The notes under the pieces were generated by a model. The model did not search any database. It worked only from the letters and a program-made list of their open reading frames with translations, and was not told where the DNA came from. A program made the translations under genes and the position numbers. This document shows positions 3,088 through 18,223 of a DNA stretch of 18,480 nucleotides, piece by piece. The DNA lies in the IMG/VR virus record IMGVR_UViG_2734482533_000002; one strand, written 5' to 3'. This DNA comes from a virus (Duplodnaviria > Heunggongvirae > Uroviricota > Caudoviricetes). Numbering within the stretch: the stretch's first letter is position 1; each line of letters starts with the position of its first letter.

Positions 3088-3373
3088 NNNNNNNNNNNNN
3101 NNNNNNNNNNNNNNNNNNNNNNNNNNNNNNNNNNNNNNNNNNNNNNNNNNNNNNNNNNNNNNNNNNNNNNNNNNNNNNNNNNNNNNNNNNNNNNNNNNNN
3201 NNNNNNNNNNNNNNNNNNNNNNNNNNNNNNNNNNNNNNNNNNNNNNNNNNNNNNNNNNNNNNNNNNNNNNNNNNNNNNNNNNNNNNNNNNNNNNNNNNNN
3301 NNNNNNNNNNNNNNNNNNNNNNNNNNNNNNNNNNNNNNNNNNNNNNNNNNNNNNNNNNNNNNNNNNNNNNNNN
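3088..3373. other. Run of 286 N (assembly gap or masked sequence)
   Basis: Directly visible: unbroken n from 3088 to 3373. Falls inside the L-K region of the tail gene cluster. Confidence 1.
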
Positions 3374-12906: not shown

Positions 12907-16587
<3,681 letters not shown>

Positions 16588-16613
<26 letters not shown>

Positions 16614-17133
16614 TCAGCAACCCCGGTATCAGTTCATCCAGCGCGGCTGCTTTGTTCATGGCTTTGATGATATCCCGTTTCAGGAAATCAACATGTCGGT
16701 TTTCCAGTTCCGGAAAACGCCGCTGCACCGACAGGGGGATCCCGTCGAGAATACTGGCAATTTCACCTGCGATCCGCGACAGCACGAAAGTACAGAATGC
16801 GGTTTCCACCACTTCAGCGGAGTCTCTGGCATTTTTCAGCTCCTGTGCGTCGGCCTGCGCACGCGTAAGTCGATGGCGTTCGTACTCAATAGTCCCTGGC
16901 TGGAGATCTGTCTCGCTGGCCTGCCGCAGTTCTTCAACTTCCCGGCGCAGCTTTTCGTTCTCAATTTCAGCATCCCTTTCGGCATACCATCTTATAACGG
17001 CGGCAGAGTCATAAAGCACCTCATTACCCTTGCCACCGCCTCGCAGAACGGGCATTCCCTGTTCCTGCCAGTTCTGAATGGTACGGATACTCGCACCGAA
17101 AATGTCAGCCAGCTGCTTTTTGTTGACTTCCAT
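16588..17133 (-). CDS. Nu1: Terminase small subunit Nu1 (181 aa)
   Basis: ORF track 16588..17133; MEVNKKQLADIFGASIRTIQNWQEQGMPVLRGGGKGNEVLYDSAAVIRWYAERDAEIENEKLRR... recognised as lambda gpNu1, with winged-HTH N-terminus. Confidence 0.95.
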
Positions 17134-17310
17134 TGTTCATTCCACGGACAAAAACAGAGAAAGGAAACGACAGAGGCCAAAAAGCCCGTTTTCAGCACCT
17201 GTCGTTTCCTTTCTTTTCAGGGGGTGTTTTAAATAAAAACATTAGGTTACGGCGAAGAAGAACGGAAACGCCTTAAACCGGAAAATTGTCATAAATAGCG
17301 AAAACCCGCG
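17134..17310. other. cosB-like terminase-binding region with three Nu1-binding R elements and an AT-rich IHF-type segment
   Basis: Between the Nu1 start and the cohesive-end core: GGAAACGACAG (17163-17173), its inverted copy CTGTCGTTTCC (17189-17199), and a third related CGGAAACGCC (17263-17272), with an A/T-rich stretch ttttaaataaaaacattagg (17227-17246) between them. This matches the lambda cosB R1-R2-I1-R3 layout as I recall it. Confidence 0.7.
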
Positions 17311-17322
17311 CGCCTTCCGCCC
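17311..17322. other. cosN cohesive-end core (12 nt), variant relative to canonical lambda
   Basis: In lambda orientation the region reads ...GATCCGACAGGTTACG GGGCGGAAGGCG CGCGGGTTTTCGCTATTTATGACAATTTTCCGG. The flanks match lambda cos as I recall it, but the 12-nt core is GGGCGGAAGGCG rather than GGGCGGCGACCT. Confidence 0.6.
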
Positions 17323-17358
17323 CGTAACCTGTCGGATCGCCGGAAAGGACCCGCAAAA

Positions 17359-17521: not shown

Positions 17522-17755
17522 ATGTCAACGAAGAACAGAACCCGCAGAACAACAACCCGCAACATCCGCTTTCCTAACCAAATGATTGAACAAATTAACA
17601 TCGCTCTTGTTCAAAAAGGGTCCGGGAATTTCTCAGCCTGGGTCATTGAAGCCTGCCGCCGGAGACTGTGCTCAGAAAAAAGAGTTTCGCCTGAAGCAAA
17701 CAAAGAAAAGAGTGACATTACTGAATTGCTCAGAAAACAGGTTAGACCAGATTGA
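17522..17755 (+). CDS. Small basic ribbon-helix-helix (Arc/Mnt-like) putative DNA-binding protein (77 aa)
   Basis: ORF track 17522..17755. After a basic Thr/Arg-rich N-terminus, RNIRFPNQMIEQINIALVQKG-SGNFSAWVIEACRRRL fits the RHH strand-helix-helix pattern (compare Arc PQFNLRWPREVLDLVRKVAEENGRSVNSEIYQRVMESF). Weak SD (AGGG ~10 nt upstream); AT-rich composition. Confidence 0.5.
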   Translation: MSTKNRTRRTTTRNIRFPNQMIEQINIALVQKGSGNFSAWVIEACRRRLCSEKRVSPEANKEKSDITELLRKQVRPD

Positions 17756-17812
17756 AGCAATTTAGATAATCGTGCAGACTACGCCCCCTCATATCACATG
17801 GAAGGTACTACA

Positions 17813-18223
17813 ATGGCTCAGGTTGCCATTTTTAAACAAATATTCGATAAAGTGCGAAATAATTTAAACTATCACTGGTTTTATTCTGAACTAAAACGTC
17901 ACAATGTCTCACATTACATTTACTATTTAGCCACAGAGAATATTCATCTTGTTCTTGAAAACGATAATACGGTTTTAATAAAAGGACAGGGTAAGGTTGT
18001 AAATGTAAGATTTTCAAAAAATAAATGCCTTATAGAAGCCACCTTAAAAGGATTCAAATCAGGAGAGTTATCATTTTACGAATACAGGAAAAATCTTGCT
18101 ACAGCAGGGGTTTTCAGATGGATTACAAATATCCACGAAAACAAAAGGTATTACTATACCTTTGATAATTCATTACTCTTTACTGAGAACATACAGAACA
18201 CTACACAAATATTTCCGCACTAA
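17813..18223 (+). CDS. DUF1398 family prophage protein, YbcV/YdfO-like (136 aa from ATG 17813; track ORF starts at 17798)
   Basis: ORF 17798..18223; the second ATG at 17813 has GGAAGG 7 nt upstream. Product [58 protein letters not shown]...[25 protein letters not shown] resembles, by recall, the E. coli cryptic-prophage proteins YbcV/YdfO (DUF1398). AT-rich codon usage typical of a moron. Confidence 0.7.

Follow-up and report, generated by a model that had tools for sequence, protein, structure and literature searches.

The cos site of the window, by which we mean the whole 18,480-nucleotide stretch of DNA analysed here (Caudoviricetes; IMG/VR record IMGVR_UViG_2734482533_000002), is very probably a working lambda-type site that carries a natural cohesive-end allele, GGGCGGAAGGCG. 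By sequence comparison, GGGCGGAAGGCG is the most diverged cosN right half documented here beside an essentially lambda-identical packaging apparatus. In the virion DNA, the 12-mer is predicted to form the single-stranded 5' extension. It recurs in many chromosomes, plasmids and phage records and is accompanied by a terminase that is nearly the same as that of lambda.

Cohesive end and cos region

The lambda reference used here is phage DE3, which derives from lambda and has a 12-bp cos site annotated in its record. The minus strand of the window reads GGTTACG/GGGCGGAAGGCG/CGCGGG around the 12-mer and, over a longer stretch, CCGACAGGTTACG GGGCGGAAGGCG CGCGGGTTTTCGCTATTTATGA. An earlier note on this DNA had read the junction in lambda orientation as GTTACG, 12-mer and CGCGGG, and the strand bears this out. 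When the window is aligned with DE3 and further lambdoid cos regions, the canonical GGGCGGCGACCT lies at the homologous position, with no gaps or indels. The canonical 12-mer given in the note is thus correct, and the absence of a length change is confirmed. Only one copy of GGGCGGAAGGCG is present in the window, against a chance expectation of 0.01.

Relative to GGGCGGCGACCT, the window allele carries C7A, G8A, A9G, C10G and T12G and is identical at 7 of 12 positions. All five differences fall in bp 7-12, where CGACCT of lambda is replaced by AAGGCG; the left half, GGGCGG, is that of lambda. The right-half difference described in the earlier note is therefore real, but its count of six positions becomes five, as C11 is retained. 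The 7/12 identity to lambda is lower than that of any named variant in the texts covered (9/12 to 10/12). Over a 281-bp cos region, the window and the canonical-type prophage of E. coli PK8241 differ only at the five cosN positions and at bp 35. Because the remainder of this region is otherwise the same, the clustering of the changes is not random drift.

As in other lambda-like cosN sites (PMC4669245, PMC9026076), 12 bp separate the predicted nick sites and a conserved CG lies on both sides. From the alignment with lambda, we infer nicks at 17323/17322 on the top strand and at 17311/17310 on the bottom strand. The 16-bp site contains four rotationally symmetric pairs (-1/14, 0/13, 2/11 and 4/9), compared with five in lambda. 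The variant loses pairs 3/10 and 6/7 and gains 4/9, and the pairs that adjoin the nicks (CG/CG and G2/C11) are kept. By nearest-neighbour calculation, the 12-bp duplex has a stability of -17.8 kcal/mol for the variant and -18.2 kcal/mol for lambda.

Outside the 12-mer, cosQ, R3, R2, R1, the CG flanks and all spacings are unchanged from lambda (Table 1). The complex cosB layout R3-I1-R2-R1 is present with its inverted R2. The I1 region, for which we assume approximate coordinates, has two substitutions. A further A>C substitution lies at window position 17288 (cos bp 35, minus strand) in the spacer between cosN and R3 (TATGACAATTTT). It is common to 11 of 85 variant-allele loci, the window included, and to one canonical locus. 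Some loci have G here, and bp 35 appears to be a freely variable site.

Table 1. Positions of cos elements and terminase genes in the window
Feature	Position	Strand	Sequence or description	Basis
cosQ, packaging-termination signal (bp -30 to -24, on what we take to be the lambda cosQ coordinates)	17346..17352	minus	GGGTCCT	sequence and spacing identical to DE3/lambda
16-bp cosN	17309..17324	minus	CG GGGCGGAAGGCG CG (12 bp and two flanking CG dinucleotides)	sequence
Cohesive-end 12-mer (cosN bp 1-12)	17311..17322	minus (reads 17322..17311)	GGGCGGAAGGCG	read directly; column-for-column alignment with the DE3 'cos site'
Variable right half	17311..17316	minus	five changes, C11 kept	alignment
cosB R3 (bp 50-65), critical TerS binding site	17258..17273	minus	AGGCGTTTCCGTTCTT	identical to lambda
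cosB R2, inverted R sequence	17199..17214	minus	AGAAAGGAAACGACAG	identical to lambda; placed by match to R1
cosB R1	17158..17173	minus	CTGTCGTTTCCTTTCT	identical to lambda
Nu1 (TerS)	16588..17133	minus	181 aa	ORF; 178/181 identical to DE3 Nu1
A (TerL; ATPase and cosN endonuclease)	14688..16613	minus	641 aa, GTG start	ORF; 637/641 identical to DE3 gpA

Terminase and late genes

The flanks and the terminase had been described as lambda-like, and both are. Nu1 has the N-terminal winged helix-turn-helix of lambda, with residues 1-47 unchanged, and identity over the whole protein is 98%. The large subunit, gpA, has 99.4% identity to lambda gpA and differs by T151S, D185E, L404R and T466I. The L404R codon lies at window positions 15402-15404 (minus strand), in the C-terminal nuclease region and within the motif GIDSQ(L>R)DRYE. 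It is close to D401, which we take to be a residue of the nuclease centre. R404 is found in 3 of 70 full-length gpA sequences (the window and loci L150 and L199), all beside a variant cosN.

Otherwise, the minus strand of the window holds a late operon of lambda type that extends from Nu1 to the start of J. Compared with a relative in an E. coli prophage, its proteins are all full length except at the junction of genes L and K. Here, a 286-base run of N (3088-3373) takes in the end of L and the beginning of K, where E. coli EC21Z-014 has 242 bp of homologous sequence. The run reflects masking or a gap in the assembly and not a biological disruption, and it accounts for the odd ORFs of 290 and 350 aa at this junction. 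Upstream of cosQ, on the plus strand and opposite the terminase, are a YlcI/YnfO-family gene and a DUF1398 gene (17523-17756 and 17798-18223). This pair is also found in the prophages of E. coli 582 and EC21Z-014 and is common at the right end of such lambdoid prophages.

Distribution of the allele

Among complete E. coli genomes, the best match to the window is E. coli 582. The same 12-mer is present in the prophages of E. coli 582, SBF22 and FHI_NMBU_03, in phage PhiR46_1, in Ravinvirus YDC107_1 and in plasmid pAH01-1. The upstream flanks of these carriers are unrelated and diverge upstream of about bp -50.

The allele was searched for with a 51-mer probe, for which the 28-base megablast seed cannot form on the canonical allele. 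It was found in 159 of 5,426 complete E. coli genomes (~3%), at 170 places, 16 of which are on plasmids. Two GenBank phage records match, PhiR46_1 (host ECOR13) and Ravinvirus YDC107_1. In PLSDB, 23 plasmids match; these are mostly of about 46 kb, are all typed as non-mobilizable and come from E. coli, E. fergusonii, E. albertii and Shigella sonnei. Exact 21-mer and 25-mer searches of IMG/VR return 78 stretches, which represent 77 places, as one place is stored twice. A loose 17-base pattern gave 104 matches in contigs of species-representative genomes, mostly chance matches in unrelated phyla. Eleven are real cos sites, and one of these, in Escherichia sp. E1V33, carries the variant allele.

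The 82 variant loci with enough flanking sequence fall into 51 distinct 310-bp contexts. Among them, bp -3 to +34 are invariant, partly because the search pattern required that stretch. A recombination scar had been proposed as the source of the 12-mer, and a local assembly error had been named as something that would refute the note. Because the same 12-mer recurs in so many different flanks, among the genomes, plasmids and IMG/VR stretches counted above, both an assembly error and a one-off scar are excluded.

PhiR46_1 is deposited as a complete phage genome, and its status as a plaque former rests on the metadata of that record. A literature search found no source paper for it; PMC12315714 is other work. 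With sequence ends taken as a stand-in for virion termini, no phage record among the probe matches and no IMG/VR contig starts or ends at the variant 12-mer.

The carrier plasmids that were inspected have N15-like or lambda-like late genes. The N15-like (Ravinvirus) phage-plasmids of ~46 kb, such as pAH01-1 (L007), YDC107_1 (L006) and the PLSDB carriers, encode a lambda-type Nu1, WP_000453567.1, which is the same protein as in chromosomal prophages. They possess a complex lambda-type cosB, and the simple cosB of N15 is absent. Judged by their gene content, the carrier phage-plasmids are mosaics of N15-like lifestyle genes and a lambda packaging module.

The allele series

IMG/VR was also scanned with the 12-mer left open, and contigs were counted for each allele. 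The canonical GGGCGGCGACCT is found in at least 121 contigs, the window allele GGGCGGAAGGCG in 57 and GGGCGTCAGGCG in 15. Each of GGGCGGCAGGCG, GGGCGGCAGACG, GGGCGGCTGACG, GGGCGTCAGACG, GGGCGGCGACCG and GGGCGACGACCT is found in a single contig. Within this tally, variation occurs only at positions 5-10 and 12, and bp 1-4, C11 and the flanking CG are constant. GGGCGGCAGGCG is one substitution away from the window allele, and further right halves in the series are CAGACG, CTGACG and CGACCG. As such intermediates exist, the gap of five changes to lambda is bridged.

GGGCGGCAGGCG, GGGCGTCAGGCG, GGGCGGCAGACG and GGGCGGCTGACG have G9, G12 and the flanks in common with the window allele. Three of them also share A8, whereas CTGACG has T8. 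All four have C7 where the window allele has A7, and one group has G6T in the left half as well. This group is GGGCGTCAGGCG (loci L107, L313-L315, L317-L322 and others), and its G6T falls in the half of the site that is described as conserved. At the GGGCGTCAGGCG loci, an ORF rule tailored to the lambda layout was passed by gpA in 1 of 8 and by Nu1 in 7 of 8; TerL at these loci may have a different layout or be disrupted.

The canonical lambda cos also appears in three non-enterobacterial assemblies, Raphidiopsis brookii D9 (L276), Aeromicrobium sp. PE09-221 (L281) and Archangium violaceum Cb vi76 (L284). These most likely represent contamination with lambda DNA.

Terminase beside the two alleles

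Nu1 and gpA were taken from every fetched locus with enough sequence. At the variant loci, Nu1 is intact in 49 of 50 and gpA in 45 of 50. At the canonical loci, the figures are 50 of 62 for Nu1 and 42 of 62 for gpA, where the ORF rule for intact genes, being tailored to lambda, may undercount loci with another gene layout. No column of gpA or Nu1 separates the proteins linked to the variant from those linked to the canonical allele; the best score was 0.37, at sites that are polymorphic in both groups. Identical proteins lie beside both alleles, namely one gpA (canonical at L117, variant at L140) and four Nu1 proteins.

Relation to known cosN sites

The cosN of lambda has 16 bp, of which 10 are symmetric, and R3 lies at bp 50-65; a model in which TerS serves as the anchor has been described (Murialdo and Feiss 2022, PMC9026076). 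The site is functionally asymmetric, as G2C cuts the yield about 10-fold and C11G, its symmetric counterpart, is without phenotype (Feiss et al. 2015, PMC4669245). The asymmetry is ascribed to R3-bound TerS, which anchors TerL for bottom-strand nicking, and changes in the right half (bp 7-12) have no measurable effect on cos cleavage (PMC4669245). The authors conclude that selection acts on the left half, the flanking CG and cosQ, and that none acts on bp 7-12 (PMC4669245). With lambda terminase, the yield is 120 pfu per cell for cosN-lambda and 132 for cosN-N15, and neither the lambda nor the N15-hy4 terminase is cosN-specific in vivo (PMC4669245). The statement in the earlier note that half-site changes impair nicking therefore holds for the left half, where G2C lies, but not for the right, where C11G and changes at bp 7-12 are tolerated (PMC4669245).

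Differences in bp 7-12 are common among lambda-like phages, with N15 and phiD326 changed at positions 9 and 12 and Gifsy-1 at 8, 9 and 11 (PMC4669245). The N15 12-mer, checked here, is GGGCGGCGTCCG, and the cohesive end of mEp213/LLS has been deduced as GGGCGGCGCGCT (PMC12315714). N15 and phiD326 resemble the window in that their natural variation is confined to the right half, and they share T12G with it. N15 is two positions away from lambda, its cosB is simple and its TerS divergent, whereas the window is five positions away and has a lambda-type cosB and TerS. Gifsy-1 and mEp213/LLS are natural right-half variants as well, but with different bases and fewer changes than the window. Position 11, altered in Gifsy-1, does not vary among the Escherichia alleles counted here.

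A search of literature text for the 12-mer or its complement returned only unrelated plant and Streptomyces papers; a dedicated survey from 2017 lies outside that search. This survey is reportedly that of Vahanian, Oh, Sippy and Feiss (2017, Virology 509:140), said to be the likeliest place for the allele to be listed.

Discussion

In a working site of the kind proposed, Nu1 (TerS) dimers would, by homology with lambda, bind the unchanged R3, R2 and R1 of cosB, and the cosB-bound TerS would anchor gpA (TerL) on cosN. TerL would then nick 5' of G1 in the top strand and after bp 12 in the bottom strand, which would leave a 12-nt 5' overhang, GGGCGGAAGGCG, with its complement, on the virion DNA. 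After injection, the overhangs would re-anneal with a stability about equal to that of lambda's. In the cosB-proximal half (bp 7-12), nicking would be driven by TerS anchoring and not by base-specific reading, so that these positions would be free to change and the rest of the site would stay fixed. The changes would cluster in these six bases because only these tolerate change within an otherwise invariant stretch of ~65 bp. GGGCGGAAGGCG itself would be cut and re-annealed efficiently in this reading. The published data on tolerance cover single changes and natural variants of 2-3 bp, and the window has five simultaneous changes.

Recombination is pervasive in lambdoid phages. Together with the terminase module of lambda type, the allele would spread through lambdoid prophages as well as N15-like phage-plasmids, and recombination would place it into many backgrounds.

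Two of the alternatives concern the ability of the site to be cut. The earlier note had suggested a packaging-defective prophage, of which this would be the decayed cosN. Five changes within a nicking site, the uncommon L404R in gpA and the deleterious effect of left-half cosN mutations (PMC4669245) all speak for decay. The changes, however, all fall in the half that tolerates them, the constrained elements are without exception intact, and the head and tail genes of the window are full length apart from the run of N. Moreover, intact terminase genes adjoin the same allele elsewhere, with gpA intact at 45 of 50 loci, and both a deposited phage genome and widespread phage-plasmids from four species have the allele. 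Decay is thus very unlikely. The note had also raised a distinct cos specificity, in which the variant cosN would be matched by a co-evolved terminase with its own nicking specificity. For a block change of 5 bp, the TerL nuclease could in principle have to change in compensation. Against this stand the near identity of gpA to that of lambda, the lack of any gpA or Nu1 column that splits the alleles, the identical gpA beside both, and the finding that lambda terminase and N15-hy4 terminase are without cosN specificity in vivo (PMC4669245). A co-evolved terminase is exceedingly improbable, and the annealing specificity of the sticky ends is the only specificity that differs.

That difference gives rise to another reading, in which the allele is functional and not neutral. 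Its diverged sticky ends would form an annealing-incompatibility group that partly isolates the lineage from co-resident lambdoid prophages of the same terminase specificity. A chromosome with a lambda-type cos at one end and the variant cos at the other would have ends that mismatch at 5 of the 12 positions and would be unable to cyclize. A 2-bp mismatch between the lambda and N15 cohesive ends already costs about 4-fold in yield, so that five should be far worse, and it has been argued that lambdoid phages which meet resident prophages gain from divergence (PMC4669245). Variant and canonical sites do co-reside, as in E. coli 582, which has three cos-region places, one of them variant, and the allele stays exactly the same however diverse the flanks. 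Rolling-circle concatemers, however, contain identical cos copies, and it would take a special situation, such as tandem prophages or cos-cos recombination, to produce heteroallelic chromosomes. No signal of selection was found in frequency or co-occurrence, the allele is a minority (~3% of genomes), and drift at unconstrained positions fits the data equally well. We therefore regard this reading as doubtful, and give the same low likelihood to the broader idea that cohesive-end alleles this diverged define incompatibility groups maintained by selection rather than drift. If it were true, the cohesive ends would form a post-packaging barrier to Ter-mediated hybrids and to cross-packaging with co-resident prophages.

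As a natural allele of a working lambda-type site, GGGCGGAAGGCG matters little for biology at large. For the lambdoid phages, it adds to the natural variation of cosN a well-populated allele (~3% of complete E. coli genomes, several Escherichia species) and a stepwise series. With it, the simultaneous right-half changes observed next to a terminase essentially identical to lambda's go from 2-3 to 5. Tools that predict prophage ends or cos sites by seeking GGGCGGCGACCT miss the variant sites, and a variant cosN alone gives no grounds for scoring a prophage as packaging-defective. The allele is also a natural substrate for asking how far TerS anchoring frees TerL from reading the sequence, and up to what number of cohesive-end mismatches cyclization is still possible.
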